From Candidatus Micrarchaeota archaeon (GTDB taxonomy: Archaea; Micrarchaeota; Micrarchaeia; Anstonellales; Bilamarchaeaceae), in the NCBI GenBank assembly GCA_964434735.1, contig CAYSWK010000001.1:2537-66536 (forward strand): a stretch of DNA of 64,000 bases, written 5' to 3'. How positions within the stretch are numbered: position 1 is the first letter of the stretch; every line of letters starts with the position of its first letter. Made by a program: the position numbers and the translations under genes. Below, piece after piece: positions 6,511 to 64,000 of this stretch. The notes beneath the pieces are model-generated. The model made no database searches. It saw nothing but the letters and a program-made list of their open reading frames with translations, and was not told the DNA's origin.

Positions 6511-6556
6511 ATGAAACCCTCATTAACAAGATAATACGTACATTAGTGACCAACCT

Positions 6557-13035: not shown

Positions 13036-13059
13036 AAAGGTTGATAGGGAAGAAAAAAT

Positions 13060-13506: not shown

Positions 13507-13563
13507 ACACAAAAAACCATTAAAAAACATATGTTTAAATAGGACAACCGAGTAACTAGTATT

Positions 13564-16881: not shown

Positions 16882-16980
16882 AGAACTACTTGAGCAAAAC
16901 GAAGCATATAATATGCTGCATTCAGAACTAAGCAAAATATGGAAAAGAATTTAAATAAATACGTATAATGATTAATATTT

Positions 16981-17979: not shown

Positions 17980-18007
17980 AAATACTTTTACGCTATTTTT
18001 AGGATAT

Positions 18008-19240: not shown

Positions 19241-19264
19241 AACCCCCCGCAACGTTATATATTC

Positions 19265-20605: not shown

Positions 20606-20642
20606 AACATAACCTTAGGTTAATATTCTTTATTATTGAAAG

Positions 20643-21032
20643 TTGTTTATGAAGATAGAACAAATTTCACTTGATGCAAAGGGGCGTATCGTATTGCCGG
20701 CATCATTTCGTTCAGCATTATCCCTTTCGTATGGAGACTCTCTTTATTTAGCACTCGATGAAAAAAACCAAACGATCATTCTTTCTTCTAAACCAAATGA
20801 ATCGCTCTATGAATTAACAATTGCAATGGGCGATGCTCCAGGTACACTTGCACATTTGGCGTTGGTTCTTGCAAAACATAAAGTCGACCTGGTTTCAACC
20901 GAAAGCCACTCGCTTACACGTTCAAAAGAAGCAGTATGGAGAATAGTCTGCAAATTCGAAGGAGATTGGCAAGGCTTGCTTGAAGACTTAAAGAAAAATG
21001 GAGCCGTAAAAGTAGAAAAGAAAAAAATCTAG
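20643..21032 (+). CDS. Putative regulator: SpoVT/AbrB-like swapped-hairpin N-domain plus ACT-like C-domain
   Basis: N-terminal LDAKGRIVLPASFR is an AbrB/MazE-type motif. The C-terminal LTIAMGDAPGTLAHLALVLAKHKVDLVS resembles an ACT domain. Confidence 0.5.
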   Translation: MFMKIEQISLDAKGRIVLPASFRSALSLSYGDSLYLALDEKNQTIILSSKPNESLYELTIAMGDAPGTLAHLALVLAKHKVDLVSTESHSLTRSKEAVWRIVCKFEGDWQGLLEDLKKNGAVKVEKKKI

Positions 21033-21187
21033 GATTCTTCTTCGGCAAATTTCTTGATTGCTTCAAAATTCTCAACAATTAATTGGGCCTTTTTCTTGCC
21101 AAAACTAAACGGATATTGATCTGATTCGTCTCGTTTGAGTACAATAAGCTTGTTTCCCTTAAACTCACTAAATTCAATAATTGCCAT
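21029..21187 (-). CDS. Small hypothetical protein (52 aa)
   Basis: ORF from the internal Met MAIIEFSEFKGNKLIVLKRDE...; no family recognised. Confidence 0.25.
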   Translation of the reverse strand: MAIIEFSEFKGNKLIVLKRDESDQYPFSFGKKKAQLIVENFEAIKKFAEEES

Positions 21188-21367
21188 TAGGTTACACCTA
21201 TTAGTAATTCTAAAGAATATAATTAAAAGGCTAGAGGGCACTAGTATAATCCATTGTGGGAATAAAGTGGGAATATTTATAAACTGTTTGTTTCTCAAGT
21301 AATGCACAACAAATGGAGGATATGAAAATGGAACAACAGGAAAAGGGTTTACTTCACCTGCAAATTA

Positions 21368-22645
21368 TTGGAAACCCCATTGGAAAAACCGATTTGGGAT
21401 AAGTTACTTGATAGAAACACTAGTTCTAAGGAAGTTTTAGAAAAGGTAAAACAAATTCTTGAAAATATTAAAACTCGAGGATTTGAGGCTGTCAAAGAGT
21501 ATACGAAACGATTTGACGGGATAGAACGGGAATCTTTTGAAGTTCCAAAAAAAGAGATGCAAACTGCACTTAATGGCTTAACTGTTGAAGAACGCAAATG
21601 CATCGAACGCTCAATTGCTTCGGTTCGCGCAATCTGCCTTGAAGAAAAGAAAAATATCAAAAATACGGAACTCAATATGCAAGACTCCAAAACCCTCTTG
21701 CGCTATCTTCCGCTTGCCAAAGTAGGAATATACGTCCCAGCAGGCAAGGCACCGCTCCCAACTTCAGTAATCATGGCTTCAATTCCAGCACAAGTTGCAG
21801 GAGTAAAAGAGCTTATTCTTTGCTCACCTCCGCAAAAAGACGGGCAGGTAAACAAATACATACTTGCAACTGCAGCGCTTTGTGGAGTTACAAAAGTATA
21901 TGCTATTGGCGGAGCACAGGCAATAGGTGCATTGGCATATTGTTTTAATGTTGATTTGATTGCTGGACCAGGAAATGTATACGTGAGTGCTGCAAAACAG
22001 ATCGTACAAAGCCAAGGTGCATGCACGATAGATATGTTAGCTGGACCTTCAGAGGTTCTAGTCGTCTTAGAGTCTGTTGGAAACCCGAAACTGGATGCCG
22101 AAAACTGTCGCTTGGCAGCAAGCGACATGCTTGCTCAAGCTGAACACGGGCCCACATCTGCAGCAGTTTGCATTACTACTAGCAAGGAACTTGGGCAAAA
22201 AGTAAGGGAAGAAGTTGAAAAACAGCTTAATGCGCTTAAAGACCAAACTCCTCGCGAATCCATTAGATTGTACGGAACTGCAATTGTTACAAAGAGTATG
22301 CAGGAAGCAATTTCCCTTGCAAACGAATTTGCTGCAGAACACGTTGAAATATTTGCAAAGGATGCAAAAAAATACGCAATGCAAATTACGAATGCAGGCG
22401 CAATATTTGTCAATACTGCAGAAGTGTTTGGAGACTACGGGTTTGATTCAAGCAACCACATCTTGCCCACGGGGAGATCTGCCAGGTTTGCAAGTGGAGT
22501 AAGCATCCAAACATTCATGAAAAGGCAGTACGTAAAAATCGCAAATGCTGCAGCACAGGCAAAATGGGCAGAGGACTGCGCAAGATTTGCACGAATGGAA
22601 CAATTGGAAGCTCACGCCAAGTCTGCAGAATGCAGACAGTTTTGA
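21368..22645 (+). CDS. hisD: Histidinol dehydrogenase (apparent TTG start)
   Basis: ILENIKTRGFEAVKEYTKRFDG, SPPQKDG, DMLAGPSEVLV and AQAEHGP are HisD motifs. There is no in-frame ATG upstream, so the ORF begins at TTG 21368. Confidence 0.9.
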   Translation: METPLEKPIWDKLLDRNTSSKEVLEKVKQILENIKTRGFEAVKEYTKRFDGIERESFEVPKKEMQTALNGLTVEERKCIERSIASVRAICLEEKKNIKNTELNMQDSKTLLRYLPLAKVGIYVPAGKAPLPTSVIMASIPAQVAGVKELILCSPPQKDGQVNKYILATAALCGVTKVYAIGGAQAIGALAYCFNVDLIAGPGNVYVSAAKQIVQSQGACTIDMLAGPSEVLVVLESVGNPKLDAENCRLAASDMLAQAEHGPTSAAVCITTSKELGQKVREEVEKQLNALKDQTPRESIRLYGTAIVTKSMQEAISLANEFAAEHVEIFAKDAKKYAMQITNAGAIFVNTAEVFGDYGFDSSNHILPTGRSARFASGVSIQTFMKRQYVKIANAAAQAKWAEDCARFARMEQLEAHAKSAECRQF

Positions 22646-22672
22646 GTTCAGGATCTTGAGTCTTAAAAAAAG

Positions 22673-24352
22673 GTGGAAAAAATGATTAATGATATTATAC
22701 GCCAAGAAATACGCAACATGAACCCCTATGTGGGAGGAGAAACTACAGAAGTAGAGGTTAAACTCAACCAAAATGAGTCCCCTTACAATTTGCCAGAACC
22801 GATTCTTGCCAAGATACAGGAAAGGCTTGCTAACGTAAAATTTAACCGCTATAACGAAGGTTCACTCAAGCGTTTGCGAGAGTTAACTGCACAAATGTAC
22901 GGCCTTGATGCAGACCAAGTAATGTACGGTTGCGGGATAGATGAGATATTCTATTATATTATTCTTACATTTGTAGGCAAAGAAGAAAAAATAGTACGAC
23001 CTACGCCGAGCTTTGCAATGTATGAAATTTGCGCGCAAGTTGCGGGAGCAAAGGACGTGCCAGTTGCACTTGATACAAATTTCGAACTAACCGATGAATT
23101 CATAAAACAAAGCAAAGATGCAAAACTCACCTTTATTTGCAGGCCAAATGCACAAACCGGCAATTCGTGGGATAAAAAAACAATAGAACAAATTGTCAAA
23201 AATACAAAAGGAATAGTGTGCATTGACGAGGCATATGCGGAATTTGCGCAAGATGATTGCCTGGATCTTCTCAAATATGAAAACGTAATCCTTGTTCGTA
23301 CCTTTTCAAAGGCATATTTGGCAGCAGGAGTACGATTAGGATATGCTTTGGCAAGCAAGGAAGTCATTGCATACATGAATAGGGTGCGGCTGCCCTGGAA
23401 CGTCGGAGCTTTGCCACAGGTTGTTGGAGAGGTTATTCTTGAAAACCAACAAGTATTCAAGGAAAAAGTAGCTGAAATAAAGGAAAACCGCAAAGAGCTG
23501 TTTGAAGCACTCAAACTACGGACCAAGGTATTACCCACCCAAACCAATTTCATGTCATTTAAGGTAAGCGACCCAAAAGGTTTTTGCAAAACACTTAAAG
23601 AAACAGGAATTCTAGTTCGAAATGTAAGCAGCTACCCTGGCCTTGAAGGATATGTACGCGTAACCGTTGGAACGAAAAGGGAAAATGAACAGTTCCTCAA
23701 AGCATTTGACCAAGTGCAATTCAAACCAATTGACTCGATCATTTTTGATGTTGATGGGGTTCTCGTTGATGTTTCGAAATCATACCGTGAAGCAATCAAA
23801 TTGACCGTTGGACAGTTTAGAGGGACAAATGCAACTGATGAAGAAATTGAAAACATAAAGAAAAAACCAAACTCAAACAACGATTGGGTTGTCACATACG
23901 CACTTGCAACAGATTATACGGGAGAATTGTCAAAATTAGACCGAACAAATGCCAAATACCTTGAAATGAAGGAAGCATTTCAAAAATTCTACTTAGACGG
24001 ACTTATCGACAAGGAAGAAATTTATATGGATAAAGCCTATGTGCGGGCGATTCTTAAAAAAGGATTAAAGATCGGAGTTGTTACGTCGCGTCCACGTTTT
24101 GAAGCGTTGTACGTGCTTAAGCGAATTGGAGGGTTTGATGAGCAGTTCGTTATGGCACAGGAAGATTGCACCGAGGAAAAGCCATCGCCAAAGCCGATCA
24201 ATGAACTAGTCGCAAAAATGAAGGTAAAAAACCCGGCATATATAGGTGACACAATCAATGACAGGCTTGCTGCAGAACGTGCAGGAGTTCGGTACGAGGA
24301 AGTAAACAAAACACAAGACGTAAACGATATTTTAAAGAGGTTATTGAAATGA
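22673..24352 (+). CDS. hisC: Histidinol-phosphate aminotransferase fused to a C-terminal HAD-superfamily phosphatase domain
   Basis: The first roughly 350 aa form a class-II aminotransferase (SFSKAY PLP-lysine region). Residues about 355-559 start [11 protein letters not shown] (HAD motif I DxD), followed by VVTSRP (motif II) and [11 protein letters not shown] (motif IV). Confidence 0.85.
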
Positions 24353-24933
24353 GAACTGCAAAAATTGAAAGAAAAACAAAGGAAACGGAAATTTCACTTG
24401 AACTGAATTTGGACGGTACGGGTAAAAATAATATCAATACGGGAGTAGGCTTCCTTGACCACATGCTTACGCTTTTTTCAAAGCACTCACTCATTGACCT
24501 CACTGTTAATGCAAAGGGCGATTTGGAAGTTGATGATCACCACACTGTTGAGGACATAGGTATTTGCTTAGGCGAAGCCATTGCAAAGGCAACGGGAGAT
24601 AAGAAAGGGGTCAAAAGATATGGCTTTTTCCTTCTTCCAATGGACGAGTCCCTTGGCCAAGTTGCACTTGACTTAGCTGGAAGAACCTCCTTTGTGTACA
24701 ATGCTGTGTTTGAACGGGAAAAAGTAGGTGAACTCAGCACTGAACTGATCAAGGATTTCTTTTACGCAATTGCGCTTAATGCCAAAATGAACCTCAATAT
24801 CAAAATTGAGGGTGAAAACAATCACCACAAGTCAGAGGCAATGTTCAAGGCGTTTGCACGCGCTTTGCGTATGGCAGTGGAAATTGATGACCGAGTAAAA
24901 AATGACATTCCTTCAACAAAAGGAACATTATAG
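24349..24933 (+). CDS. hisB: Imidazoleglycerol-phosphate dehydratase
   Basis: [16 protein letters not shown] and GFLDHML, the typical IGPD N-terminus; overlaps the hisC stop (ATGA). Confidence 0.9.
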
Positions 24934-25767
24934 GTGATACTAATGAAAATTGCAATTCCCAACAAGGGAAGATTATATGAAGATGCTGTAAAGGAACTAG
25001 CGGCAATTGGGATTGTGTTTCCAAGCAATGGCCGAAAACTTTACACAAGTACAAGCCAACCAAATATACAAATAGTTCTATTGCGGGCTCAAGATATTCC
25101 TTGGTATGTAGCAAGTGGATCCGTAGAACTTGGAATTACGGGTACAGACATGATTGAGGAAAGCGATGTCACGGTAACTAAGATTCTTGATCTTGATTTT
25201 GGCAAATGCAAAATAGCTTTAGCTGCACAAAAAGGAACGAAAATTGCGAATTTTGACAAAATTGCAACTAAACTTACCAATATTGCCAAGAAATGGATCG
25301 CAAAAAAGAAATTGAATGCACAAGTTATTCCTCTTTCAGGAGCGCTTGAGTTTGCACCTTTTGCAGGTGTTGCACCTGCAATAATTGACCAGGTTTCAAC
25401 GGGCGACACGTTGCGCGAAAATAACCTTGAAGTAATCGAAGTTATTTTTGAATCCAATGCCTGCCTCATAACTAAAAACAAAACAAGCGAGGAAATGGAA
25501 GAAATAAAAATGGCATTACAAAGCGTTATGCTTGCCAGGAAAAAAATGTATATTATGCTCAACGTAACTAATGAAGAAAAACTTTCGGCAGTTGTACGAG
25601 TACTTCCTTGTCTTGAAAGCCCTACGGTGATAAAACTTGCCAAACCTGGAGAATACGCCGTGCACTCAGTTGTTGATTCAAAAGATCTTAGCCAAACTAT
25701 GCGTACGATCTCAAAAGCTGGTGCTGAAGGCATTCTTGTAACAAAACTTGAACGGGTAGTGCTATGA
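24934..25767 (+). CDS. hisG: ATP phosphoribosyltransferase, long form
   Basis: IAIPNKGRL N-terminus, ARAQDIPWYV-like region; the 277 aa length implies a C-terminal regulatory domain. Confidence 0.9.
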   Translation: MILMKIAIPNKGRLYEDAVKELAAIGIVFPSNGRKLYTSTSQPNIQIVLLRAQDIPWYVASGSVELGITGTDMIEESDVTVTKILDLDFGKCKIALAAQKGTKIANFDKIATKLTNIAKKWIAKKKLNAQVIPLSGALEFAPFAGVAPAIIDQVSTGDTLRENNLEVIEVIFESNACLITKNKTSEEMEEIKMALQSVMLARKKMYIMLNVTNEEKLSAVVRVLPCLESPTVIKLAKPGEYAVHSVVDSKDLSQTMRTISKAGAEGILVTKLERVVL

Positions 25768-26333
25768 TCGGGATTATAGATGTAGGAAATGCCAAAAGTG
25801 TTGAAAATGCACTTGAAAAATTAGGCTATTCTAGCGTACGAACTATCGATTCTACAATCATTAGCAAGTGTAATGGAATCATACTTCCAGGAGTTGGCGA
25901 ATTTGGAACGGTAATGCAACAAATCGATCCGCTGTCGCCACTCATCAAACGATGGAAAAAACCGTTTCTTGGCATTTGTGCAGGAATGCAAGTATTGTTT
26001 GAATCAAGTGAGGAAAGCCCCAGTGTTGAAGGGCTTGGAATCATTAAAGGAAAAGTAAAAAAATTCCAAAACATACGAACTCCCCAAATAGGTTGGAATA
26101 AACTTGAAAATAGTACTAATCCGCTGCTTGGAAAAGAAGAGTATGTATATTTTGTTAATTCCTACTATTGCGTCCCGCGGGAAAAGGCAATTACTAGTAC
26201 TGCCAAATACGGAATTAACTTTGCAGCATCAATAAATAAAGAAAATTACTACGGCGTACAATTTCACCCTGAAAAAAGCGGGGAATGTGGGCTGGAGATG
26301 CTCAACAAATTCGCGAGGTTAGTAGTATGTTGA
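25764..26333 (+). CDS. hisH: Imidazole glycerol phosphate synthase, glutamine amidotransferase subunit
   Basis: IGIIDVGNAKSV, GICAGMQ (catalytic Cys), VQFHPEKS. Confidence 0.9.
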   Translation: MIGIIDVGNAKSVENALEKLGYSSVRTIDSTIISKCNGIILPGVGEFGTVMQQIDPLSPLIKRWKKPFLGICAGMQVLFESSEESPSVEGLGIIKGKVKKFQNIRTPQIGWNKLENSTNPLLGKEEYVYFVNSYYCVPREKAITSTAKYGINFAASINKENYYGVQFHPEKSGECGLEMLNKFARLVVC

Positions 26334-26986
26334 TTATTCCTGCGATCGACTTACTAGACGGAAACTGCGTACGTTTGCTCAAAGGTAAACGAGATGAGTG
26401 CACAGTCTATTCGAACAATCCGTTAGAAGTAATTAAATCCTTTAAAGAACAAGGCGCAAAACTTGTCCACATTGTAGACCTTAATGGTGCATTTGATGGT
26501 ACAATGAAGAATCTGCCAAGTATCAAAGAATTAGCAAAAGAAATTGAAATAGAAGTGGGCGGTGGAATACGAACCAAAGAAAAAATAGATCAACTAAGGG
26601 CAAGCGGAGTGAAAAGAATAATTGTAGGAACGAACCTTCCTGAATTAAAGAAATATGGAGTAATCGGTGCACTTGACTTTAAAGATGGAAAATTCGCAAC
26701 AAAAGGATGGGTTGAGACAAAAGAGGTTAATATCAAGGAACTTCTTAAAGGACTCACCGAAGTGATTGTTACTGATGTTTCAACTGATGGAATGTTAAGT
26801 GGACCAAACGTGCCTCTTATGAAAAAAATCCAAAGTTATGGCATCAACGTCATTGCTTCTGGGGGGATTGGCTCATTAGAAGATATTGCAAAACTCAAAA
26901 AAGCAGGCATAACTGGGGCAATTGTTGGAAAGGCACTTTACGAAAAAAAATTCTCACTTGAAGAGGCGATTGATTATGCTAACTAA
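26327..26986 (+). CDS. hisA: ProFAR isomerase
   Basis: MLIIPAIDLLDGNCVRLLKG and VHIVDLNGA; the start is at the internal Met. Confidence 0.9.
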   Translation: MLIIPAIDLLDGNCVRLLKGKRDECTVYSNNPLEVIKSFKEQGAKLVHIVDLNGAFDGTMKNLPSIKELAKEIEIEVGGGIRTKEKIDQLRASGVKRIIVGTNLPELKKYGVIGALDFKDGKFATKGWVETKEVNIKELLKGLTEVIVTDVSTDGMLSGPNVPLMKKIQSYGINVIASGGIGSLEDIAKLKKAGITGAIVGKALYEKKFSLEEAIDYAN

Positions 26987-27734
26987 ACGGATCATACCTT
27001 GTCTTGATGTTGCACAGGGTCGAGTAGTTAAAGGTACGAATTTTGTCAATTTGCAGGATAATGGAGATGCCGTTGAACTTGCAAAAAAGTACTATTTGGA
27101 AGGTGCAGATGAGCTATGCTTTCTTGATATTACTGCAACAGTTGAAAAAAGGAAAACGCTTCTTGAATTAGTGCAACGTGTCGCCCGTGAGATATTTATT
27201 CCATTTTCAGTTGGCGGAGGGATACGCACACTTGAAGATGCCCGTGCAGTACTGACATGCGGCGCTGAAAAGGTAGTTCTTGGAACTATAGCCATACAAC
27301 AACCTAAAATAGTACAAGAAATTGCAAAAGAATTTGGAAGCCAGGCAGCGGTTATTTCAATAGATGCAAAACGCGTAGGCAATTCTTGGAACCAGTTTAT
27401 CAAAGGCGGGCGGGAAGATTCTGGTAAAGATGTAATCAAATTTGCAAAAGAAATGGAAAACTTGGGAGCCGGAGAGATTCTGCTCAATTCAATAGATAAG
27501 GATGGCACAAAACAAGGATTTGATCTAGAACTATGCAATGCAGTTTGTAATGCCGTAAACATTCCAGTAATCGCATCAAGCGGGGCTAAGGATGCACAGA
27601 GTTTTGTTGAAATTTTCAAAAAAACACAGGTAAGTGCTGCTTTAGCTGCACGCATATTTCACACTAATGAAGTTTCGATTAGAGAGGTTAAGAAAATACT
27701 GACTAAAAACAAGGTGAACATACGTGAAATTTGA
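26976..27734 (+). CDS. hisF: Imidazole glycerol phosphate synthase, cyclase subunit
   Basis: RIIPCLDVAQGRVVKG and CFLDITAT; the start is at the internal Met MLTKRII. Confidence 0.9.
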   Translation: MLTKRIIPCLDVAQGRVVKGTNFVNLQDNGDAVELAKKYYLEGADELCFLDITATVEKRKTLLELVQRVAREIFIPFSVGGGIRTLEDARAVLTCGAEKVVLGTIAIQQPKIVQEIAKEFGSQAAVISIDAKRVGNSWNQFIKGGREDSGKDVIKFAKEMENLGAGEILLNSIDKDGTKQGFDLELCNAVCNAVNIPVIASSGAKDAQSFVEIFKKTQVSAALAARIFHTNEVSIREVKKILTKNKVNIREI

Positions 27735-28302
27735 TAAAAAAGGACTCATTCCAATGATTATTCAAGATGCTAAAACAAGGGAAGTACTTTCACTTGTCTA
27801 TGGAAATAAAGAATCCATACAAAAAATGAAAGAGACAAGATTTGTATGGCGATACTCTCGTTCAAAAAAACGAATTATGCAAAAGGGTGAAGAATCCGGA
27901 AATGTTCAAAAAGTAGTCTCAATTGTTGAAGACTGCGATTCAGACGCACTGCTTGTACTAGCTCAACCATCGGGGCCGGCATGCCACAAAGGCACAGGAA
28001 GCTGTTTTAGTGATGCTATAACTAGTTTAGAATCAGACACGTTAGAAAAACTAGAGCAGATAATTGAAAATCGGATCAAGAATCCTAAAGAAGGGAGCTA
28101 TACTGCTAAATTGGCTGGTAATGGCGCACTCCTCAACGGCAAGTTACGTGAGGAACTGTATGAATTCATATACTTTAAGGACAAGGACAATCTGAATTGG
28201 GAAATGGCTGACCTTTTGTACTTCATGCTCGTACTCTTGAAAAAAAACGAGGGAAGCTTAAAAGAGGTTAAAGAAAAGCTGCAAGAACGGATGAAGATCT
28301 AA
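27724..28302 (+). CDS. hisI: Bifunctional phosphoribosyl-AMP cyclohydrolase / phosphoribosyl-ATP pyrophosphatase
   Basis: The N half (GLIPMIIQD...CDSDALLVLAQPSGPACHKGTGSCF) is HisI. The C half (LEKLEQIIENR...) is HisE. Confidence 0.85.
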   Translation: MKFDKKGLIPMIIQDAKTREVLSLVYGNKESIQKMKETRFVWRYSRSKKRIMQKGEESGNVQKVVSIVEDCDSDALLVLAQPSGPACHKGTGSCFSDAITSLESDTLEKLEQIIENRIKNPKEGSYTAKLAGNGALLNGKLREELYEFIYFKDKDNLNWEMADLLYFMLVLLKKNEGSLKEVKEKLQERMKI

Positions 28303-28346
28303 TACAAACAGAAAATTAATATAGCCCCCCAAATATAATCTAAATT

Positions 28347-28928
28347 ATGAACGCACGATATGGTTGTCTTATACTTATAGCAATTCTTTTCTTAGGATGC
28401 ACTACTCCTAATACGAACAATATAGGTGGGCCGGAAAATCAACAAGTACTAACTACCGACCAAACCGCAGTACTGCCAGAATCAATACCGCCAGCAATTG
28501 ATAACGATACACAAGAAAATGAAATTCCAATGCAGAATGATGTAACAAAGGATTCAATTTCAAACCAAACGTCTTCTCAAAACACTATTCTGACAGAATT
28601 AAGTATGGCTGAGGTTTCCAAACATAATGCCGCACAAAATTGCTGGGTTGTCGTATACGGAAAAGTTCTTGACCTTACGGCATTTACTGCGCACCCTGGA
28701 GGAAGCGCATACGTGCCTTATTGTGGAACTGAAGCAACCCGCGCGTTTGAAACAAAGGGCGGGCAAGGATCCGGGCATTCTCAAGCTGCGGTGTCATGGC
28801 TTGACAGCTATACTATTGGCGCACTGGGCAGCACCGTAAACAGCACCGCACTGCCAGCAACCAATCAAACAATCCCAAAAGGAGAGGATGAGGATGACGA
28901 ATATGAAGATGAGTTTGAGGATGACTGA
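28347..28928 (+). CDS. Secreted/lipobox protein with a cytochrome b5-like heme-binding domain and an acidic tail
   Basis: Signal peptide plus lipobox LFLGC. SKHNAAQNCWVVVYGKVLDLTAFTAHPGG matches the cyt-b5 HPGG motif. The C-terminus is EDEDDEYEDEFEDD. Confidence 0.55.
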   Translation: MNARYGCLILIAILFLGCTTPNTNNIGGPENQQVLTTDQTAVLPESIPPAIDNDTQENEIPMQNDVTKDSISNQTSSQNTILTELSMAEVSKHNAAQNCWVVVYGKVLDLTAFTAHPGGSAYVPYCGTEATRAFETKGGQGSGHSQAAVSWLDSYTIGALGSTVNSTALPATNQTIPKGEDEDDEYEDEFEDD

Positions 28929-28969
28929 TAATGTTCAGATAGAAAGAGGGCCTTGTTGTAAAAATAAGA

Positions 28970-29284
28970 TTGGATAATGAACATTTTTCCTACGCACGAA
29001 TTCTCAAAGATCCATTAATCGTATTTTATAATGGTAAATTCAAAGAAGAAAAAATGCTTGAAGAAATAATAACTTTACCCATTCTCTTCAAAGTATGGTG
29101 TCATAAAGATGTTCATAAAATAATGGAAAACGTTGGATTTATTAAACTTGAACAAAATCTAAAAAAGCCAGTAAAATTCTACAAACAAGACCCTACTACC
29201 AAAAAATTATTTATTTACGAAAAGGGCAAGCAACAACCCGCCTCACGTGAAGAAATTAAAGAACTGGAATACGCTGCTGTTTGA
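28970..29284 (+). CDS. Hypothetical protein
   Basis: 104 aa ORF with no recognisable motif. Confidence 0.3.
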   Translation: MDNEHFSYARILKDPLIVFYNGKFKEEKMLEEIITLPILFKVWCHKDVHKIMENVGFIKLEQNLKKPVKFYKQDPTTKKLFIYEKGKQQPASREEIKELEYAAV

Positions 29285-40723: not shown

Positions 40724-40744
40724 AGTGTGTTTTATTGCCAGGAT

Positions 40745-40840
40745 CGCATAATCCGGTAGTGCGTCAGTCTCGAAAACAATTATCGTGTAAACTGATCCGT
40801 AAGGATTGTAGGTTCAAATCCTACTCCTGGCGTTTTTCTT
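40745..40840 (+). tRNA. tRNA-Ser (anticodon CGA) with a 15-nt intron at the canonical 37/38 position
   Basis: Acceptor GCCAGGA/UCCUGGC, anticodon stem UCAGU...ACUGA interrupted by CUCGAAA plus a 15-nt insert, long variable arm UCCGUAAGGA, T-arm GUAGG-UUCAAAU-CCUAC, followed by a T-run. Confidence 0.7.
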
Positions 40841-40942: not shown

Positions 40943-41093
40943 GCCACTGTAACTCAGCGGTAGAGTGCCTCTCTCGTAAATCGGTTTTAAATTTCGAGTT
41001 GGGCGTTTCGTCTCAAAAAACGAAACGCAACACGGAAAACGATCAACCGATCAGGACAGGAGGAAGTCAGGAGTTCAAATCTCCTCTGTGGCT
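40943..41093 (+). tRNA. tRNA-Thr (anticodon CGU) with a 79-nt intron at 37/38
   Basis: Acceptor GCCACUG/CUGUGGC (one U-U), D-arm ACUC-AGCGGUA-GAGU, anticodon stem CCUCU/GGAGG, loop CUCGUA|A split by a 79-nt insert (40979-41057), T-arm AGGAG-UUCAAAU-CUCCU. Confidence 0.65.
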
Positions 41094-56763: not shown

Positions 56764-57309
56764 TTACTTTTTAGCAAGCACGTGCTTTTTGATAACTGCC
56801 CATAATTCGTCAGCAACGGGTGGCGCAAGATGACTTGTAAATTCACGTACCAACCTTGAATTAGAGGATGCTGCATTATACGTTTTTATGAGAGTCGAGT
56901 ATTTTTCAAAAAACTCCGGCACGCACGGCCATATGCACAGCAATTCCTTGGCAACTGATTCAACATCAGCTTGTGAACGCACGTCCCACCACGTATCCAA
57001 AGAGGAAAAAACCCGCCCTATTCTCGTACAAATATGGCAATTATAAATCGTTGGTTTTTGAGGATCCCGCGTATACGTGAACTTCTTGTCAATCTGGGAG
57101 TAATAAATGCCAAGATTGATAGTAAACGTACCTCCTGTGGCCCAATTCCATTGGCTTGATTGGACATTAATAACGTATATGGCCTCGTTAGTTTCTTTCC
57201 TAAAATTATTGCCCTGTTTTTTGAAACCCTCCTTCTTAAGAATGGGAATAATGCTTTTTGAAAGAACTTCTGATAAAAGCACTTTATAGGATTTCGTCAT
57301 GAACGACAC
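56764..57309 (-). CDS. DUF4304-like hypothetical protein
   Basis: N-terminal LKKEGFKKQGNNFRK pattern; 181 aa. Confidence 0.4.
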   Translation of the reverse strand: MSFMTKSYKVLLSEVLSKSIIPILKKEGFKKQGNNFRKETNEAIYVINVQSSQWNWATGGTFTINLGIYYSQIDKKFTYTRDPQKPTIYNCHICTRIGRVFSSLDTWWDVRSQADVESVAKELLCIWPCVPEFFEKYSTLIKTYNAASSNSRLVREFTSHLAPPVADELWAVIKKHVLAKK

Positions 57310-57429: not shown

Positions 57430-57738
57430 ATGGCAAAAGTTCGAGTAACACTCATGGGAGAAGACATTCAAGACCTTGAGAGCGTCGTAAGCCAGATTAA
57501 ATCCTTGGCTGATGCGCTCAAAATGAAGTTTACGGGGCCTGTTAGGTTACCACGTAAAAAAATGACGATCTCATGCAGACGCACCCCTTGTGGTGATGGA
57601 TCAGACACTTACGAGCACTGGGAGAAGCGAGTCTCAAAAAGGCTTATTGAAGTCGAAGGAGACGATATCAAGCAAATCTTGCGTGTTAAGGTTCCCACCT
57701 CAGTAATGGTGAAGATTTCACTTACCGAAAACAACTGA
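57430..57738 (+). CDS. rps10: 30S ribosomal protein S10 (uS10)
   Basis: [23 protein letters not shown]...[42 protein letters not shown]. Confidence 0.9.
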
Positions 57739-57748
57739 CGTGATACTA

Positions 57749-57862
57749 ATGGGAGACCGACCACGTAAATGGAAAAAGAAGAATCGAATGAGATGGAAAT
57801 GGGTAAAAAAGAAAAGGCGCAGGCTCAAAAAGAGAATGAAGCGCAGAGTGGGTGAATTATAA
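57749..57862 (+). CDS. Tiny Arg/Lys-rich ORF, candidate ribosomal protein eS32 (formerly eL41)-like
   Basis: 37 aa [37 protein letters not shown] resembles the KWRKKRMRRLKRKRRKMR pattern of eL41. It is not in the ORF track because it is under the length cutoff. Confidence 0.35.
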
Positions 57863-57967
57863 AGGGTTTTATACCTTTATTTTTATTATATTTAAACCCG
57901 AAAATTACTAAACAGTCCCAAAACCCGAAACCGGGTGCTGGAAACTGATTTTAGGAGGGAGATATCT

Positions 57968-58606
57968 ATGGTATTATTCGACAAAAAATCGTTCACGGAC
58001 GCGATAACAAAAGTCCTTGAGTCAAAGGGAAAGAAAAAATTCAGACAAAGCGTTGAAATCGCAATAAACATGCGCGGCATAGATTTCACAAAGAGTGAAA
58101 ACAGGCTTAACATGGACATCATCCTCCCTAAAGGAAAGGGCGGAAAAGAACCAAAAGTCGCAGTCATTGCTGATGATGCAACGTGCAACAACGCAAAGAA
58201 AGGCGGCGCAGACCTTACGATTCTTCCAAACGAAATTCCATCCTATGCTGCAAAGGAAAAAATAACCGACCTTGCAGACAACTACATGCTTCTTGCACAG
58301 CCAAACCTCATGGGTAATGTGGCTAAATCATTAGGTCAATACTTGGGTCCACGCGGTAAATTACCAAGACCCATCGTTGGAGATGTTGTTCCGCTTCTTA
58401 CAAGAACACGAAACTCAGTACGTGTTGCAACGAAAGGAAAATACCTTCCCGTTGTGCATTCATTCATTGGTACAGAAACAATGAACGCTTCAGACTTGGC
58501 TGAAAACGCAGAAAGCGTTTTCGAAGCAGTAAAAGCCAAGGTAGGCGAAGGCGCAATCAAGAACGTCTATGTCAAATTGACGATGAGCGCACCTGTAAAA
58601 GTATAA
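57968..58606 (+). CDS. rpl1: 50S ribosomal protein L1 (uL1)
   Basis: KFRQSVEIAINMRGID...PKGKGGKEPKVAVIADD, the typical uL1 pattern; the start is at the internal Met. Confidence 0.9.
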   Translation: MVLFDKKSFTDAITKVLESKGKKKFRQSVEIAINMRGIDFTKSENRLNMDIILPKGKGGKEPKVAVIADDATCNNAKKGGADLTILPNEIPSYAAKEKITDLADNYMLLAQPNLMGNVAKSLGQYLGPRGKLPRPIVGDVVPLLTRTRNSVRVATKGKYLPVVHSFIGTETMNASDLAENAESVFEAVKAKVGEGAIKNVYVKLTMSAPVKV

Positions 58607-58610
58607 TGAG

Positions 58611-59474
58611 ATGAGAACTATGTACAAAACTGATACTTCACGAAAGAGCATACAGGAAAAAATAAAGAAGGTCAATGATACGTACGCGCACATTCAAAAG
58701 TACCCAACGCTCGCACTTATCGACCTTGCACGTTTGCCAGACAACCTTTTCCAGGCATCACGTAAAAAAATCCGTGACGCGGGCGGAATCGTGTTCGTAC
58801 TTACCAAGCCCGTGCTTGAACGAGTTCTTGAAAAGAACCCCAAGCTTTCCTCACTTAAGGAAAAATGCACCAAGCCACTTGCACTCATTGCAACGAACAT
58901 GACTCCTTTTGAATTAAACAAATTCTTTAGGGCAAACAAGAAAAAGCGCGCTGCAAAAATCGGCGAAAACGCACCGTTTGAAATTATCGTTCCTGAAGGG
59001 GAAACAGACCTTCCTCCGGGGCCAGCACTTTCAGAATTAAAAGGTGCGGGGCTTAACGTCCAGATCAAAAACGGTAAAATTGTTGTTGCAAAGGACTCAA
59101 CACTTGCAAAACAAGGTGAAGCTCTCACGGTCCAGAAGGTCAAGGCACTCCAGATGCTTGGCATCATGCCATTCCACTCTGCAGTCAACCTCGTCAATGC
59201 ATATGATGGACACTATGTGTACTCAAAAGACGCACTTGACATTGACCTTACGCTTGATACAGATATGGTGCAAAGCATACGTGATGCACTTAACTTGTCA
59301 ATCAATGCAGGATATCCAACTTCGGCAACAGTCACAAACATGTTGCAGGAGGCATACCGCCAAGGGCTCAACGTGGCCATCAACGGTTCGTTATACTCAT
59401 CAGGTTCAGTAGAGCAGCTTCTCATCTCTGCTTTAAGGCAGGGAATGGCTATTGAAACTGTTGGAAAACAATAA
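58611..59474 (+). CDS. rpl10: 50S ribosomal protein L10 / acidic P0 (uL10)
   Basis: YPTLALIDLARLPDNLFQASRKKIRD...; about 287 aa; operon position between L1 and P1. Confidence 0.85.
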   Translation: MRTMYKTDTSRKSIQEKIKKVNDTYAHIQKYPTLALIDLARLPDNLFQASRKKIRDAGGIVFVLTKPVLERVLEKNPKLSSLKEKCTKPLALIATNMTPFELNKFFRANKKKRAAKIGENAPFEIIVPEGETDLPPGPALSELKGAGLNVQIKNGKIVVAKDSTLAKQGEALTVQKVKALQMLGIMPFHSAVNLVNAYDGHYVYSKDALDIDLTLDTDMVQSIRDALNLSINAGYPTSATVTNMLQEAYRQGLNVAINGSLYSSGSVEQLLISALRQGMAIETVGKQ

Positions 59475-59491
59475 TTATACGGTGAAAACAT

Positions 59492-59800
59492 ATGACAAAA
59501 GTCGACCCATATTTGCATGCAGTGCTCCTTTTGCACGGTGCAGGAAAAGAAGTTTCAGCTGCTTCAATCTCAAGTGTCTTGAAGGCAGCAGGTGCAGAAC
59601 ACGACGAAGCAAAGGCAAAAGTCCTTGCAGATGCAGTCAAAGGAGTTAACTTTGAAGACCTCCTCAAGAACGCATTGGCAGTCGCAGCGGCACCCGCAGC
59701 AGCGGCTCCTGCAGCAGCACCCAAGAAGGAAGAGAAGAAAGAAGACGCAGGCAAGACCGAAGCTCAAGCAGCTGAAGGTTTGGCATCGCTCTTTGGTTAA
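59492..59800 (+). CDS. rpl12: 50S ribosomal stalk protein P1 (aL12)
   Basis: MTKVDPYLHAVLLLHGAGKEVSAASISSVLKAAGAE...Ala/Pro hinge...EEKKEDAGKTEAQAAEGLASLFG. Confidence 0.9.
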   Translation: MTKVDPYLHAVLLLHGAGKEVSAASISSVLKAAGAEHDEAKAKVLADAVKGVNFEDLLKNALAVAAAPAAAAPAAAPKKEEKKEDAGKTEAQAAEGLASLFG

Positions 59801-59862: not shown

Positions 59863-60480
59863 CTATTTATCAAAAAACTCATGGAAAAAATGGGGAAATC
59901 CATGCAAATCTCTTAAAAAAGCGATAAAATCATCCGGATTTTCAACTCTACTTTTAAACTGCGAGTCGATCTTAACAAATTTTTGATATTCAGTAATTCC
60001 ATATGCGTGGGTTACGTCTTCCAATTGGGCACCGATGCGTTGTGCACAATGCCTAAGTCGTTCACGCAATAGTTTTGCATCAAATTCATCATCTACATAA
60101 AAAACAAAACGCTTGCCGGGCAACTCAGGTCGGTACCCGCCCCATTTAGCAAAAAAAGGGTATTCTGGAAATTGTTTTGCAAGTTCAATAATAATAGTAT
60201 GCATCTGCTGCAAAGGATTATGGCCCATAACAAAACCTGAAAGACGTTGATCATCTCTTAAAGCGCGAAGATCAATTTCGGCTTTTCCATGAAGTAACAT
60301 TTCAAGTAAAAGGCAGGTGGCCACACCAGTCCTTTTATCGGCCTTGGAACGATCCCAATCAGAAGGCAAATGCCTTGCATAACTCCAGTATGGATTGTGA
60401 GGCTGAGTATCAACTAAAGGTGTTTCGATAGCTCCTTTGCCAACGTGAGAACGAGCAATACGAAAAGCCAGCTGAATCAT
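59863..60480 (-). CDS. Hypothetical protein (possible HEPN-like Rx4H motif), divergent from the RelA/SpoT-domain gene
   Basis: About 205 aa from MIQLAFRIARSH...; contains LRERLRHCAQR (Rx4H); no confident family assignment. Confidence 0.3.
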   Translation of the reverse strand: MIQLAFRIARSHVGKGAIETPLVDTQPHNPYWSYARHLPSDWDRSKADKRTGVATCLLLEMLLHGKAEIDLRALRDDQRLSGFVMGHNPLQQMHTIIIELAKQFPEYPFFAKWGGYRPELPGKRFVFYVDDEFDAKLLRERLRHCAQRIGAQLEDVTHAYGITEYQKFVKIDSQFKSRVENPDDFIAFLRDLHGFPHFFHEFFDK

Positions 60481-60571
60481 ATATTTCTTGAGACCAATTC
60501 TCTTTATAAATGTGTTTAAATTTGATAAAAAGTGTAGATTTATAAAACGTTTGAGGAACAATAAGAGATAC

Positions 60572-61348
60572 ATGCAACTTATCAATTATCGCCCTCATAG
60601 TAGCTTTCTTCGACCCCCCAGTCAAACGATAGAAAAAACCTATTCACGTTTGGGGATTACAGAAAATTTTATACGGGATATTAAGTATGAAAATAGGGAG
60701 GAACTTATGCGTGCGCTCCAAAAAAGACACGGGGTTTCACGTGATTTAGCGCGCAGATTACGAAAAAATTTTGATAAAGAATATCAAAAACGTGAAGGAG
60801 AAGTTTTTCTTGAATCCCGAGCAAAGGAAATCGAAAGAATACGGGAAAAACTGACACGTGAAAGAAGAGCTGAGGTTGCGCCTTGCATACTGCATGATTC
60901 TGAAGTAGAGTGGGTAACAAGCATACAAGGACATGAAAATTTTGACGGAATTATGAATATTCATGAACGCGTAGTTCGCGCCTTTGGTGGACTAAGGGAT
61001 TTAGGAGGCGTACGTACCATACCTGACGGGAACTATGCTCAAGATGAAGTAGTGTACACTACTTTTCAAAGAATACTCGATGTACTTGGAATAACCTCTT
61101 CGGAGGAACTTACCGTATTTCTTGACAGATTTTTGCTTGTTGGACCTGAAGAATGGGGATTACGGTCCATACATATGGGCATAATATATGAGGATGTGCC
61201 CGTTGAACTCCAATTTAGGACCATGCAAATGGATTTCTTTGCAAAAACACGATTATTACGAAAAGGATTAGACAAACCTGAACAAGGACTTACTGAAATA
61301 AATTATAGGGAACGAATGCGTGCAAAACAAACAGAGTTTTTAGAATAA
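60572..61348 (+). CDS. RelA/SpoT-domain nucleotidyltransferase (small-alarmone-synthetase-like)
   Basis: DLGGVRTIPDG (DxxGxR), LRSIHMGIIYEDVPVELQFRTMQMDFFAKTR (compare the YRSLH / EIQIRT..mH.WAE synthetase motifs), preceded by a roughly 100 aa Arg/Lys/Glu-rich helical region. Confidence 0.7.
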   Translation: MQLINYRPHSSFLRPPSQTIEKTYSRLGITENFIRDIKYENREELMRALQKRHGVSRDLARRLRKNFDKEYQKREGEVFLESRAKEIERIREKLTRERRAEVAPCILHDSEVEWVTSIQGHENFDGIMNIHERVVRAFGGLRDLGGVRTIPDGNYAQDEVVYTTFQRILDVLGITSSEELTVFLDRFLLVGPEEWGLRSIHMGIIYEDVPVELQFRTMQMDFFAKTRLLRKGLDKPEQGLTEINYRERMRAKQTEFLE

Positions 61349-61452
61349 AAAACGTTCTGATTAACGAGTACGCCAATTCACGCATTTTTCATAATACAAA
61401 ACTAGATCAAAACTGACTGCTGGAAACTCGAAACGATAAAAGGATCATGATA

Positions 61453-61669
61453 TGCGTCTGCCGGGATTCGAACCCGGGTCGCAAGCTGTTTCCAGAAATC
61501 AAATTAATTTCTTTGAAACTTTTTGATGAAACTTTTTTCCAAAAAGTTTCTTGGGAAGCTCGAATCCTACCGTCGTCCAAACGTCTTGACCATTCGTATC
61601 CTACGGGTTTTGATTAAACTTTTTCCCGCATGTATATACTGGTCAAAAAGTTTACTAGACTACAAACGC
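61453..61669 (-). tRNA. tRNA-Gly (anticodon CCC) apparently interrupted by two introns (about 82 nt in the D-loop and about 64 nt adjacent to the anticodon loop)
   Basis: The reverse complement gives a 5' exon GCGUUUG-UA-GUCUAG at 61655-61669. The internal exon CGGUAGGAUU-CGAGC-UUCCCAA matches tRNA-Gly(UCC) in this window. The 3' exon is GCUUG-CGAC-CCGGGUUCGAAUCCCGG-CAGACGC-A. The acceptor GCGUUUG/CAGACGC pairs at 7 bp, and the anticodon stem CGAGC/GCUUG pairs. Confidence 0.55.
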
Positions 61670-61709: not shown

Positions 61710-62507
61710 ATGGGAAGAACCCATAAGAGGCCTAAGATTACGATGACATGGATTAGAGTTAACATATTACGCACGAGTGTAAACGAAGTTACTGAAAAAC
61801 TGACTTCGCAGGGCTTTACGGTTACGCAAAGTGAATTTCTCCCCTATGCACTCGAGGTAACGGGAGAAACGCAAGTAGCAAAAACCGTTGAACACCAACG
61901 CGGGTTTTTCTACATTCAAAGCCTTGCAAGCCAAATGGTTGCCCACGTGCTTAATCCTACGGAAAATGACCAAATCATAGATTTATGTGCTGCTCCTGGA
62001 AGCAAAACAACTCATCTTTCAATGCTCCTTAACAATACGGGGGCAATCCTTGCAAATGACGAGAGTTTCCTTCGGTTACGATCATTAGGTGCAAACATAG
62101 ACCGCATGGGGTGTACAAACATCGCAATGGTCAATTACAAGGGCCAATTCCTTCGAACGACCATGGTTCCTGATAAGGTACTTGTTGATGCGCCCTGCAG
62201 CGGAAAGGGAACCAAAAGCCCCATGGAATTTTCAGAAAATAGGCTTTCGCAGCTTGCAAAGCTACAAAAAAAACTCATCGTACGCGGATTTGACCTACTC
62301 AAACCAGGTGGAACATTAGTATACTCAACATGCACAACCACTGAAAAGGAAAACGAAGAGGTCGTAAATTATGTATGCAGCAAACGGGAGAACGCACAAA
62401 CGGTAAAACCAAACCTCCCTTGCGACTTTGAATTCAACATTGGTGCACGTATAAAACTTGATGAGCAATTCTTCATCGCGTGTATAAAAAAAGGTGAAAC
62501 TGCATGA
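61710..62507 (+). CDS. NOL1/NOP2/Sun-family RNA cytosine-C5 methyltransferase
   Basis: DLCAAPGSKT (SAM motif I), DAPCSGKG (motif IV Pro-Cys), TLVYSTCT (motif VI TC). Confidence 0.8.
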   Translation: MGRTHKRPKITMTWIRVNILRTSVNEVTEKLTSQGFTVTQSEFLPYALEVTGETQVAKTVEHQRGFFYIQSLASQMVAHVLNPTENDQIIDLCAAPGSKTTHLSMLLNNTGAILANDESFLRLRSLGANIDRMGCTNIAMVNYKGQFLRTTMVPDKVLVDAPCSGKGTKSPMEFSENRLSQLAKLQKKLIVRGFDLLKPGGTLVYSTCTTTEKENEEVVNYVCSKRENAQTVKPNLPCDFEFNIGARIKLDEQFFIACIKKGETA

Positions 62508-62926
62508 TGTTTGAACAATTTGTATTCAATAGATTCGGAATTGACCTAACAGGCGTAACGTGCATTTACCAAGGTGAAAGAATATACCTTGCAAACCCTG
62601 CAACCGCTGCGCTGGAAGGCACGCAACGAAGAGGACTATATATCGGGAAAACAGAGAGTATTTATGGTCCCAAGCCAAGCCTTGACTTTGTCCTTGCATA
62701 CGGCCACCTGGCAACAAAAAACAAGGCAACGGTTGATGATAAGACAATTGAACAGCTGTATCTTGGAAATCATATAGAACCTCCTTCTGAGGATAACGGC
62801 CTCATCATTGTTTTGGATTCAAAAGGAAGGGGTGCCGCAATCGGTTTTGCAAATGATATTTCAATGCAAAGCCTTATCCCTAAGCAAAGGCAAATTACAA
62901 AAAGCGAAAAGAAAGAAGAGGAATAA
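62504..62926 (+). CDS. Hypothetical protein downstream of, and overlapping, the NSUN methyltransferase (possible detached RNA-binding/PUA-like C-terminal module)
   Basis: 140 aa, ATGA overlap with the methyltransferase stop; no motif recognised. Confidence 0.3.
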   Translation: MMFEQFVFNRFGIDLTGVTCIYQGERIYLANPATAALEGTQRRGLYIGKTESIYGPKPSLDFVLAYGHLATKNKATVDDKTIEQLYLGNHIEPPSEDNGLIIVLDSKGRGAAIGFANDISMQSLIPKQRQITKSEKKEEE

Positions 62927-62927
62927 A

Positions 62928-64000
62928 TTACTGAGGCTTTGAAGCACGTGCCTTGAGAAGAGTTGTAATATCAGCTTCTGAAAGCCCACCTGCACCTTGC
63001 GCAAACTGAGATGTGAGATATTCTTCACTTGGAGGAATATCATATGTAGGCCTTTCCCGAAGAAGATTTTCACGCTTTGATAATGCTTCTTGACGAGAAG
63101 CAAGATCTTCAACAACATCATCGGTAATTAATTTCTTAGGTCGTGAGAATACCTCTTTTTGTATCCCTTCAGTGACCCTCTTAAAATCTTCTTCGATTTG
63201 AGTTTTCTGTTCAGGAGGGGTAGACGGAGACTCTGATTTTTCCTTAAGTTCTATATAATGCCCATAAATTTCCTTAAGATTCTTATCTTCTGATACAGAT
63301 GCAACTGCAATTGCAAAATTATGTTTAAGTTCTTCGGGCAATTTACCTGTTTTTGCAAGCTCTGCAAGTTCTTCAGTTCCTTTATGGGGATCGAACACCA
63401 TTTCTATGATTTCTTTCACTGCGGCCGTACGCTCCAAAACAAGACTTGTACGCTCTTCTGATTGTCTAGAAGTTAGGGGGCCATAAGGAAGAGATTGTAA
63501 TTTCTTTTCAACCTCGTCAAACTTTTCGTATGCATCCTTAAGATCCTTATCAAGTGCATATGAAGCCCGTTCGAGAGCAACCTTCTCACGGTCCATCGAA
63601 TCGAATAAATAAGGTGTCTCAAATGCAAGAGGGTCATCTTTTTTCGTCCATTTTTCATCTGAAACACGCGAAATTTCAGAATCAACTGCTTTTTTAAGAT
63701 TTTTCTGTTCGTATCTATATTGTTCATTAAGTTCCTGAATCTGACGATTGATATCTGCCAAAGCATCGGTATCCTTGGCCTCTTTTGCCTCATCCTTACG
63801 AACCTCAAGGCTTGCCTGAGCATTCCTAAAGTCTGCAACTTCCTTAAGTTCATTGATACGATTTAGAGAACTTGGAACTACTTCAGGGGACGAATATGTA
63901 TACTTTTCATTAATTACTTCCAATGCACCAATTACAGTTCCATAATATTTAGCATCGGATTCTGAAATCTTGCCATCCTGTTTTGGAAGTGCTGAAAGCA
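62928..64000 (-). CDS. Coiled-coil hypothetical protein, N-terminus beyond the window end
   Basis: The open frame continues without a stop to position 64000; E/K-rich heptad-like sequence; the track start at 63923 is a TTG artefact. Confidence 0.35.
   Translation of the reverse strand, partial: LSALPKQDGKISESDAKYYGTVIGALEVINEKYTYSSPEVVPSSLNRINELKEVADFRNAQASLEVRKDEAKEAKDTDALADINRQIQELNEQYRYEQKNLKKAVDSEISRVSDEKWTKKDDPLAFETPYLFDSMDREKVALERASYALDKDLKDAYEKFDEVEKKLQSLPYGPLTSRQSEERTSLVLERTAAVKEIIEMVFDPHKGTEELAELAKTGKLPEELKHNFAIAVASVSEDKNLKEIYGHYIELKEKSESPSTPPEQKTQIEEDFKRVTEGIQKEVFSRPKKLITDDVVEDLASRQEALSKRENLLRERPTYDIPPSEEYLTSQFAQGAGGLSEADITTLLKARASKPQ

Follow-up and report, generated by a model that had tools for sequence, protein, structure and literature searches.

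When a gene for a small RelA/SpoT homologue (RSH) synthetase-domain protein is found in an archaeon, head to head with an unfamiliar neighbour, the question arises of whether the two form a toxin–antitoxin (TA) or defence module, or whether an enzyme of nucleotide signalling merely happens to lie beside an unrelated gene. We examined such a pair, gene A (the synthetase) and gene B, in a 64,000-nucleotide stretch of a Candidatus Micrarchaeota archaeon genome (GCA_964434735.1, contig CAYSWK010000001.1, positions 2,537 to 66,536; hereafter the window), and confirmed both open reading frames (ORFs) at the coordinates given in Table 1. An initial annotation, made from the DNA letters and their translations, had proposed either a TA or defence-like module or a genuine archaeal alarmone system. 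The explanation we consider probable, judging from sequence comparisons and a predicted structure, is that gene A encodes a stand-alone, chromosomally inherited RSH enzyme resembling small alarmone synthetases (SAS), belongs to a small and divergent Micrarchaeota clade, has an altered acceptor pocket, and sits next to gene B by accident. Signalling of the (p)ppGpp type is characteristic of bacteria and plastids, and archaeal RSH genes are sporadic, with none characterised in the searchable literature. A vertically maintained, clade-specific SAS-like enzyme would allow one to ask, with a definite candidate in hand, whether RSH chemistry is used by any archaeon and which acceptor it acts on.

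By its sequence and modelled fold, gene A is an RSH synthetase-domain protein whose motifs lie far above chance. Its match to the Pfam family RelA_SpoT (PF04607) passes marginally (E = 5.2e-6; 27.2 bits, cut-off 27), and five relatives score between 26 and 41 bits, four of them at 28.8–41.2 and P0008, at 26.3, just under the cut-off. Such a borderline score would suit a different protein, a Pol-beta-type nucleotidyltransferase resembling RSH enzymes by chance, but we regard this as extremely improbable. The only significant PDB matches of the family profile are Rel, RelA, SpoT, RelP and RelQ chains (E = 1.2e-7 to 1.4e-3). Aligning the gene A family with Bacillus subtilis RelQ in hhalign (the RelQ sequence used was confirmed to be identical to 5DED/5F2V) pairs all four synthetase motifs in agreeing order and spacing, and the G[SG]...DxD signature of MNT-type nucleotidyltransferases is absent from gene A. 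An AlphaFold2 model built from a 12-sequence alignment has the RSH-type nucleotidyltransferase fold, with a mean local confidence (pLDDT) of 78 and a predicted TM-score of 0.78; only residues 98–137 are disordered. Searched with Foldseek, it returned RSH enzymes as all of its top 17 matches, with RelP, RelSeq, Rel and SpoT in the lead. The profile and structure searches therefore agree with the initial annotation in placing this archaeal protein closer to the synthetases than to other nucleotidyltransferases.

The three synthetase motifs that had been read from the sequence, DLGGVR, LRSIH and ELQFRT, are real, with support from both Pfam and the PDB profile search. The charged helical region described as preceding them is also present, but is not a separate element, as it contains the basic Syn1 motif (ESRAKEIERIREK, R83-x-K85-x3-R-x3-K93). 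In hhalign this segment pairs with RelQ GRVKPVASILEK, placing R83, K85 and K93 on R46, K48 and K56, and HMMER pairs it with GRAKHLYSIYNKM of Rel. Around it, E81, R83, K85, R96 and R99 are invariant in the family alignment and K93 is conserved in at least 90% of sequences; the Ser of the canonical RxKxxxSxxxK motif is Arg in gene A. In Syn2, D143, G146 and R148 correspond to D72, G75 and R77 of RelQ (D72-IAG-L-R77), and the FaRel2 equivalent of D143, D90, is required for activity (bioRxiv 10.1101/2021.04.30.441581). Syn4 (E212-x-Q-x-R-T217) aligns with RelQ E139-I-Q-I-R-T144, with E212, Q214 and R216 on E139, Q141 and R143. The ATP-binding, Mg2+-binding and catalytic motifs are intact and in canonical order, and a loss of catalytic residues, which would have spoken against a synthetase, is not what we found. 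Syn3 departs from the pattern: L197-R-S-I-H201 aligns with RelQ Y116-R-S-Y-H120, its first position also with the Y of gYQSLH; S199 and H201 of the YxSxH motif are present, and the acceptor-stacking Tyr is Leu197 here.

The start of gene A given in the initial annotation also proved right. Residues 1–45 are conserved in all homologues (M1 and L3 invariant; R7, Y24, F33, D36 and E44 in at least 90%), which all open with M-[KQ]-L-x-x-[YF]-R and carry a GIxExF[IL]RD segment. Because of this conserved N terminus and the 258-residue product in the NCBI record, ATG 60572 is the correct start. One gene caller chose an internal ATG at 60707 (213 residues, P0001), with GGGAGG upstream; we rejected it, as it would discard 45 conserved residues and a TATA-box-like element precedes 60572. 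The two genes share a 91-bp promoter spacer holding two such elements, one on each strand. Archaeal TATA boxes keep a well-established spacing to the start, and as each of these lies 26–27 nt from its ATG, the arrangement implies two separate, essentially leaderless transcripts.

Table 1. Coordinates in the window of genes A and B, their putative promoter elements and the synthetase motifs
Feature	Position	Strand	Remarks
Gene A, stand-alone RSH synthetase-domain protein; diverged member of an SAS-like family restricted to Micrarchaeota	60572–61348	+	258 aa
Gene B, conserved hypothetical protein; small family, chiefly from archaeal contigs	59863–60480	-	205 aa
TATA-box-like TTTATAAAA	60539–60547	+	Centre about 27 nt 5' of gene A ATG; sequence reading
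Palindromic TATA-box-like TTTATAAA	60503–60510	-	About 26 nt 5' of gene B ATG (60480); sequence reading
Syn1, R83-A-K85-EIERIRE-K93, predicted ATP-phosphate-binding basic motif	60818–60850	+	Inside charged-helix region
Longer copy-specific Syn1–Syn2 insertion, residues 98–137	60863–60982	+	pLDDT <50; gapped against other members; absent from RelQ, no counterpart in canonical SAS enzymes
Syn2, D143-L-G-G146-V-R148 (DLGGVR), predicted Mg2+-coordinating Asp	60998–61015	+	D143, G146 and R148 invariant in family
Syn3, L197-R-S199-I-H201 (LRSIH)	61160–61174	+	Leu at canonical acceptor-stacking Tyr; Trp195 two residues upstream
Syn4, E212-L-Q214-F-R216-T217 (ELQFRT), predicted catalytic motif	61205–61222	+	P210, E212, Q214 and R216 invariant in family

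The family to which gene A belongs is very small, highly divergent and, as far as seen in these searches, confined to Micrarchaeota (DPANN). Searching 1.84 billion representative proteins with phmmer returned gene A itself and five remote relatives (27–38% identity, 222–232 residues). The second-best phmmer match, P0006 (E = 1e-12), is a 2475-residue CBM_X2 repeat protein that we rejected as a repeat artefact, since each of its five to six near-identical repeats matches only residues 98–158 (about 30% identity, 33 bits) and the scores are summed. When 5.8 billion proteins were searched by profile, nine matches came back, bringing the total to about a dozen clusters. A genome scan, which used a sub-alignment of the closer family members, found three matches, all in Micrarchaeota/Micrarchaeia metagenome-assembled genomes (MAGs), and every named source of the family is a micrarchaeon. 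Micrarchaeal genomes are small, and many of these organisms live as symbionts. A survey of DPANN archaea lists RelA/SpoT genes in Diapherotrites, Woesearchaeota, Pacearchaeota and Nanoarchaeota, with Micrarchaeota unlisted (PMC8407392), and a 2011 census of RSH proteins found SAS and small alarmone hydrolase (SAH) genes only sporadically in archaea (PMC3153485). Our literature search found no paper describing this Micrarchaeota clade.

Members of the family share a conserved N-terminal strand–helix–strand module (residues 1–40) and a 25–40-residue insertion between Syn1 and Syn2, and they end directly after an AK..VKR.GLD segment. Eleven of the 12 have a basic isoelectric point (pI 8.6–10.1, compared with 6.6 for RelQ). 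The exception is the window copy, with a neutral pI of 7.05, and it is an outlier in other respects as well: it is only 27–34% identical to the other members, its Syn1–Syn2 insertion is longer, and it carries a C-terminal helix extension. It is also the one copy with Leu in the acceptor-stacking column, where the other 11 have Tyr. The Leu197 codon, TTA, is two changes away from a Tyr codon, and the protein sequence, Leu197 included, is identical in independent assemblies, so a sequencing error does not account for it. The stacking Tyr and the Mg2+-binding Asp are reported to be highly conserved among SAS enzymes, and substitution of the Tyr abolishes both toxicity and tRNA labelling by FaRel2 (bioRxiv 10.1101/2021.04.30.441581).

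These peculiarities raise the alternative that the window copy is a pseudoenzyme, a family paralogue in decay or without catalytic activity. In its favour are the Tyr-to-Leu change at the stacking position, the low-confidence insertion of 40 residues, the C-terminal extension, the low identity to other members and the atypical neutral pI. We nevertheless consider this unlikely. The reading frame is uninterrupted and has a suitably placed TATA box, its sequence is the same in independent assemblies, and the invariant ATP-binding, Mg2+-binding and catalytic residues are all kept at about 70% divergence, which argues that catalysis is still under selection. If the Syn3 segment forms a regular beta-strand, Trp195 would face the same side as Leu197, and the pocket may have been remodelled, not destroyed.

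Whether genes A and B belong together can be judged from the loci at which their homologues occur. We scanned all the loci retrieved, several of them short (1.4–2.9 kb), with hidden Markov models for both genes. Joint occurrence is limited to the window and to L003 and L015, which are identical copies of it. Gene B is absent from the flanks examined at six other distinct synthetase loci, and the synthetase from those examined at six other distinct gene B loci; co-occurrence is thus zero in 12 other distinct loci, searched from both sides. In MAG016 (GCA_040758235.1), which holds both, gene B is on contig 47 and the synthetase gene on contig 101.

This distribution bears most directly on the proposal that the pair is a TA or defence module of the toxSAS type, with gene A a growth-arresting pyrophosphokinase and gene B its antitoxin or sensor. 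The proposal draws on the adjacency of the genes around a common 91-bp promoter region, on the occasional presence of gene B homologues in accessory regions (one, at L002, near transposases and a HigB/HTH pair; another, at L021, beside a PIN-like ORF, its PIN/VapB labels assigned by eye only) and on the position of the gene B homologue of L001, which occupies the slot that the synthetase gene has at L004. The lack of co-occurrence and the separate contigs of MAG016 speak against it. So does orientation: the defining trait of toxSAS loci is that toxin and partner gene stand in a conserved bi- or tricistronic unit, in the same direction and often overlapping (bioRxiv 10.1101/575399), whereas genes A and B diverge from two TATA boxes. 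Searches gave no meaningful PADLOC match and no PHROG, phage, plasmid or viral-contig match; the sole PADLOC hit, to PDC-S33 (E = 0.0035, 14.8 bits), covers the Syn1 region of gene A, and gene B has none. Moreover, the family profile matches the housekeeping enzymes Rel, RelP and RelQ and not the CapRel, FaRel2 or Tas1 chains, and the Tyr that toxSAS activity requires is missing from the window copy. We therefore think a TA or defence pair very improbable. The survey of neighbourhoods suggested by the initial annotation itself, in which gene B turned out to be unrelated to homologous synthetase loci, counts against that part of its proposal, and we infer that the adjacency is incidental; none of the evidence ties the two genes functionally.

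Gene B also fails to supply the partner that the proposal needs. It had been suggested that its Rx4H segment, RERLRH (residues 139–144; 60049–60066, minus strand), could be a HEPN-like element. The segment is present, but in homologues it aligns to GRVREA, QRLYAV and KALVAV; as Rx4H is not conserved, we rejected gene B as a HEPN protein. The protein has no match in Pfam, NCBIfam, PADLOC, PHROG or PDB sequences. Its AlphaFold2 model, from four sequences, is of low confidence (pLDDT 52); it is alpha/beta, where a HEPN domain would be an all-alpha helical bundle, and recovers in Foldseek only generic ferredoxin-like, ACT and PII folds (E >= 3e-3). Homologues with 40–56% identity come from a Micrarchaeota MAG (L001), from the small AT-rich metagenomic contigs L016, L018, L019 and L021 (one of them DPANN-like) and from a 4.47-Mb contig, L002. 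The nucleotidyltransferase gene near the homologue in L016 encodes a common MNT-type enzyme (GS...DID) that shows no resemblance to gene A, and we rejected it as a relative. In L002 (JGI 3300056826) the homologue, at 6001–6660 and 53% identical, lies in a region of 34% GC with transposase fragments (IS66, DDE_Tnp_1, Y2_Tnp) and HigB/HTH and Gp49/HTH pairs. The genome exceeds those of all DPANN archaea by far, which suggests that gene B moves horizontally between domains. Taken together, gene B appears to be a conserved hypothetical protein unrelated to gene A, neither an antitoxin nor a HEPN protein.

The synthetase genes of other Micrarchaeota have settings of their own. A shared order at L004/5/6/12, L007 and L008/9/10 runs Aminotran_4, FBPase_3, DUF192, RSH, TP_methylase (probably diphthine synthase), a small ORF and a Y-family polymerase (IMS), and continues with an unknown ORF, RsmB/F, PUA, HIT and deoxyhypusine synthase. 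Elsewhere the RSH gene follows DnaK/GrpE and precedes DtxR-FeoA/FeoB (L014; labels from a reading of translations only), or accompanies YjbQ and a 326-residue ORF with an apparent signal sequence, esterase-like by eye only (L017). At L011, the MAG016 contig with the synthetase gene, DUF7121 lies upstream and a NUDIX hydrolase gene (2491–2862, minus strand) stands tail-to-tail with the RSH orthologue P0016, 4 bp from its end. Certain bacterial NUDIX enzymes degrade (p)ppGpp, and the L011 protein is a candidate hydrolase partner, seen at this one locus. No partner gene is common to all the synthetase contexts compared, and the window shares with the L004-type group only a nearby RsmB/F gene.

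The translation-related genes in these surroundings raise another alternative, namely that the family consists of non-toxin pyrophosphokinases that act on the translation apparatus by modifying RNA or tRNA 3' ends or some other non-guanine acceptor. Besides the probable diphthine synthase, the RsmB/NSUN protein with PUA and the deoxyhypusine synthase, ribosomal proteins and a tRNA lie near gene A in the window. The Lys/Asn residues that bind the guanine nucleotide in Rel enzymes are not conserved in the family. The basic pI of 11 members also recalls the tRNA-modifying toxSAS enzymes, which use basic patches where RelP and RelQ are acidic (bioRxiv 10.1101/2021.04.30.441581). Against this, the window copy is neutral and without the stacking Tyr, and the translation neighbourhood is confined to close lineages (66–72% identity), in which it could be plain synteny. 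On balance we hold this alternative to be doubtful. Much the same applies to its broadest form, to which we give only a small chance: that the clade is a new RSH branch, a basic, non-toxin pyrophosphokinase with an acceptor other than GDP/GTP (a tRNA/rRNA 3' end or an adenine nucleotide), serving as an endogenous translation regulator in DPANN archaea. The grounds for a non-guanine, translation-linked role are just the basic family pI and the translation-related neighbours. If it were true, the window copy would have a further remodelled pocket, with Trp195/Leu197 in place of an otherwise highly conserved Tyr.

We therefore return to the stand-alone SAS-like enzyme as the best explanation. Such an enzyme would bind ATP and pass its beta,gamma-pyrophosphate on to an acceptor 3'-OH; the default acceptor would be a purine nucleotide and the product of the (p)ppGpp or (p)ppApp type. 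In the window copy, the acceptor pocket would be remodelled, with Leu197 in place of Tyr, Trp195 nearby and acidic residues at positions that are Lys in canonical Rel enzymes, and with such a pocket neither the acceptor nor the level of activity can be read from the sequence. Several observations weigh against this explanation. First, the Pfam score of gene A barely reaches the threshold. Second, judged against the RelQ sequence, the HxxxYK-type segment at the C terminus of canonical SAS enzymes is missing from the family. Third, the replacement of the stacking Tyr by Leu197 may leave the enzyme weak, inactive or retargeted. Fourth, gene B of MAG016 (L001, 6001–6618) fills the very slot between DUF192 and TP_methylase that the RSH gene occupies in related genomes (L004, 4512–5186): it lies about 40 bp 3' of DUF192 and upstream of TP_methylase, and unknown ORFs of 406 and 134 residues follow. 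This coincidence may point to a variable hotspot or to what is left of an earlier adjacency; it hints weakly at a historical link between the two genes and is insufficient for a functional one. Finally, no alarmone hydrolase was identified in the inspected part of the window. With this and the substituted Tyr, the other suggestion of the initial annotation, a genuine archaeal alarmone system, is unproven. Even so, the tempting TA and HEPN interpretation has been removed, and the start, motifs and family of gene A are defined precisely enough for an enzyme assay.

The surroundings of gene A in the window are those of an archaeal core chromosome. Ribosomal proteins S10, L1, L10/P0 and acidic P1 are encoded 5' of the locus (57430–59800, plus strand), with DnaG-like Toprim genes, CBS and pilus-type T2SSE/F genes further upstream; a probable intron-bearing tRNA and an RsmB/NSUN-type methyltransferase gene (61710–62507) follow on the 3' side, and SRP54 and Nop56/58 are also encoded in the window. 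The GC content of genes A and B (0.39–0.40) shows no anomaly against that of the window (0.41), and no convincing direct or inverted repeats marking an inserted island were found around them.

Several other features of the window deserve mention. A DUF4304 protein (E = 7e-26) is encoded at 56764–57309 (minus strand), with the pilus-type T2SSE/F cluster on one side and the ribosomal protein genes on the other. Beyond gene A, a 140-residue ORF without a Pfam match (62504–62926, plus strand) overlaps the RsmB/NSUN stop codon, in a slot that holds a Methyltranf_PUA protein in orthologous loci, and a charged, probably coiled-coil protein of 331 residues with no family match is encoded at 62928–63923 (minus strand). 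A histidine-biosynthesis cluster at approximately 13000–29000 comprises HisG, a HisZ-like tRNA-synt_His paralogue, two His_biosynth genes, histidinol dehydrogenase, IGPD, PRA-CH and an aminotransferase; glutamate dehydrogenase accompanies it, a biosynthetic capacity above that of typical DPANN genomes.

The tRNA gene downstream of gene A (61452–61669, minus strand) is probably a tRNA-Gly(CCC) with two introns, and escaped both default ARAGORN and Rfam at the gathering threshold. It has an acceptor stem GCGTTTG/CAGACGC and a T arm CCGGG-TTCGAAT-CCCGG, and its anticodon arm, CGAGC-TTCCCAA-GCTTG, forms when a 64-nt intron is taken out of the canonical position (61551–61488). The second insert, of about 83 nt (about 61658–61576), lies within the D arm; without both inserts, whose borders are approximate, ARAGORN gives a 72-nt cloverleaf. 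Because each putative intron contains one copy of a 20-nt direct repeat that is 90% identical (TTTTGATGAAACTTTTTTCC and TTTTGATTAAACTTTTTCCC; 61521–61540 and 61608–61627), the two inserts appear to be related. Two further intron-containing tRNA genes (40736–40833 and 40943–41093, plus strand) were detected by Rfam and missed by default ARAGORN. With introns allowed, ARAGORN calls both tRNA-Thr(CGT), with introns of 15 nt and 79 nt, and the same anticodon call in adjacent genes is odd.

Among the closest known systems are RelQ and RelP, the SAS1 and SAS2 enzymes of Firmicutes (PDB 5DEC, 6EWZ, 6FGK): like gene A they have a single SYNTH domain without hydrolase or regulatory domains, and the motifs RxK...K, DxxGxR, xxSxH and ExQxRT follow in the same order. 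They differ in sequence, at about 20% identity to the gene A family, and in lacking the N-terminal module, the Syn1–Syn2 insertion and the basic pI that characterise it. Conversely, RelQ has an HxxxYK segment and a C-terminal helix, which contributes to its tetramerisation, and both are absent from the family, while the Leu-for-Tyr change is found only in the window copy. The synthetase domains of the long RSH enzymes Rel, RelA and SpoT (PDB 8ACU, 1VJ7, 5XNX, 9S6K) provide the best profile matches and share the catalytic motifs; gene A differs from these enzymes as a single domain of 258 residues without HD hydrolase, TGS or ACT. The distance to all canonical RSH proteins is such that a single-sequence search of the 1.84 billion proteins with gene A did not reach them at E <= 1e-3. 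The toxSAS enzymes CapRel, FaRel2, PhRel and Tas1 are likewise small stand-alone synthetases, and the tRNA-targeting ones are basic, as are most members of the gene A family. Gene A differs from them in having no conserved adjacent partner, in its divergent orientation, in its location away from phage or plasmid DNA and in giving neither a profile match to CapRel, FaRel2 or Tas1 nor a meaningful one in PADLOC, and the window copy lacks their essential Tyr. With the archaeal RSH genes already reported, divRel of Methanosarcina acetivorans (PMC3153485) and those of other DPANN lineages (PMC8407392), gene A has in common that it is a synthetase-type gene, experimentally uncharacterised. It is set apart from them by published descriptions, not by sequence comparison, as a gene of the Micrarchaeota, which lie outside the phyla in which the DPANN survey reports RelA/SpoT genes (PMC8407392).

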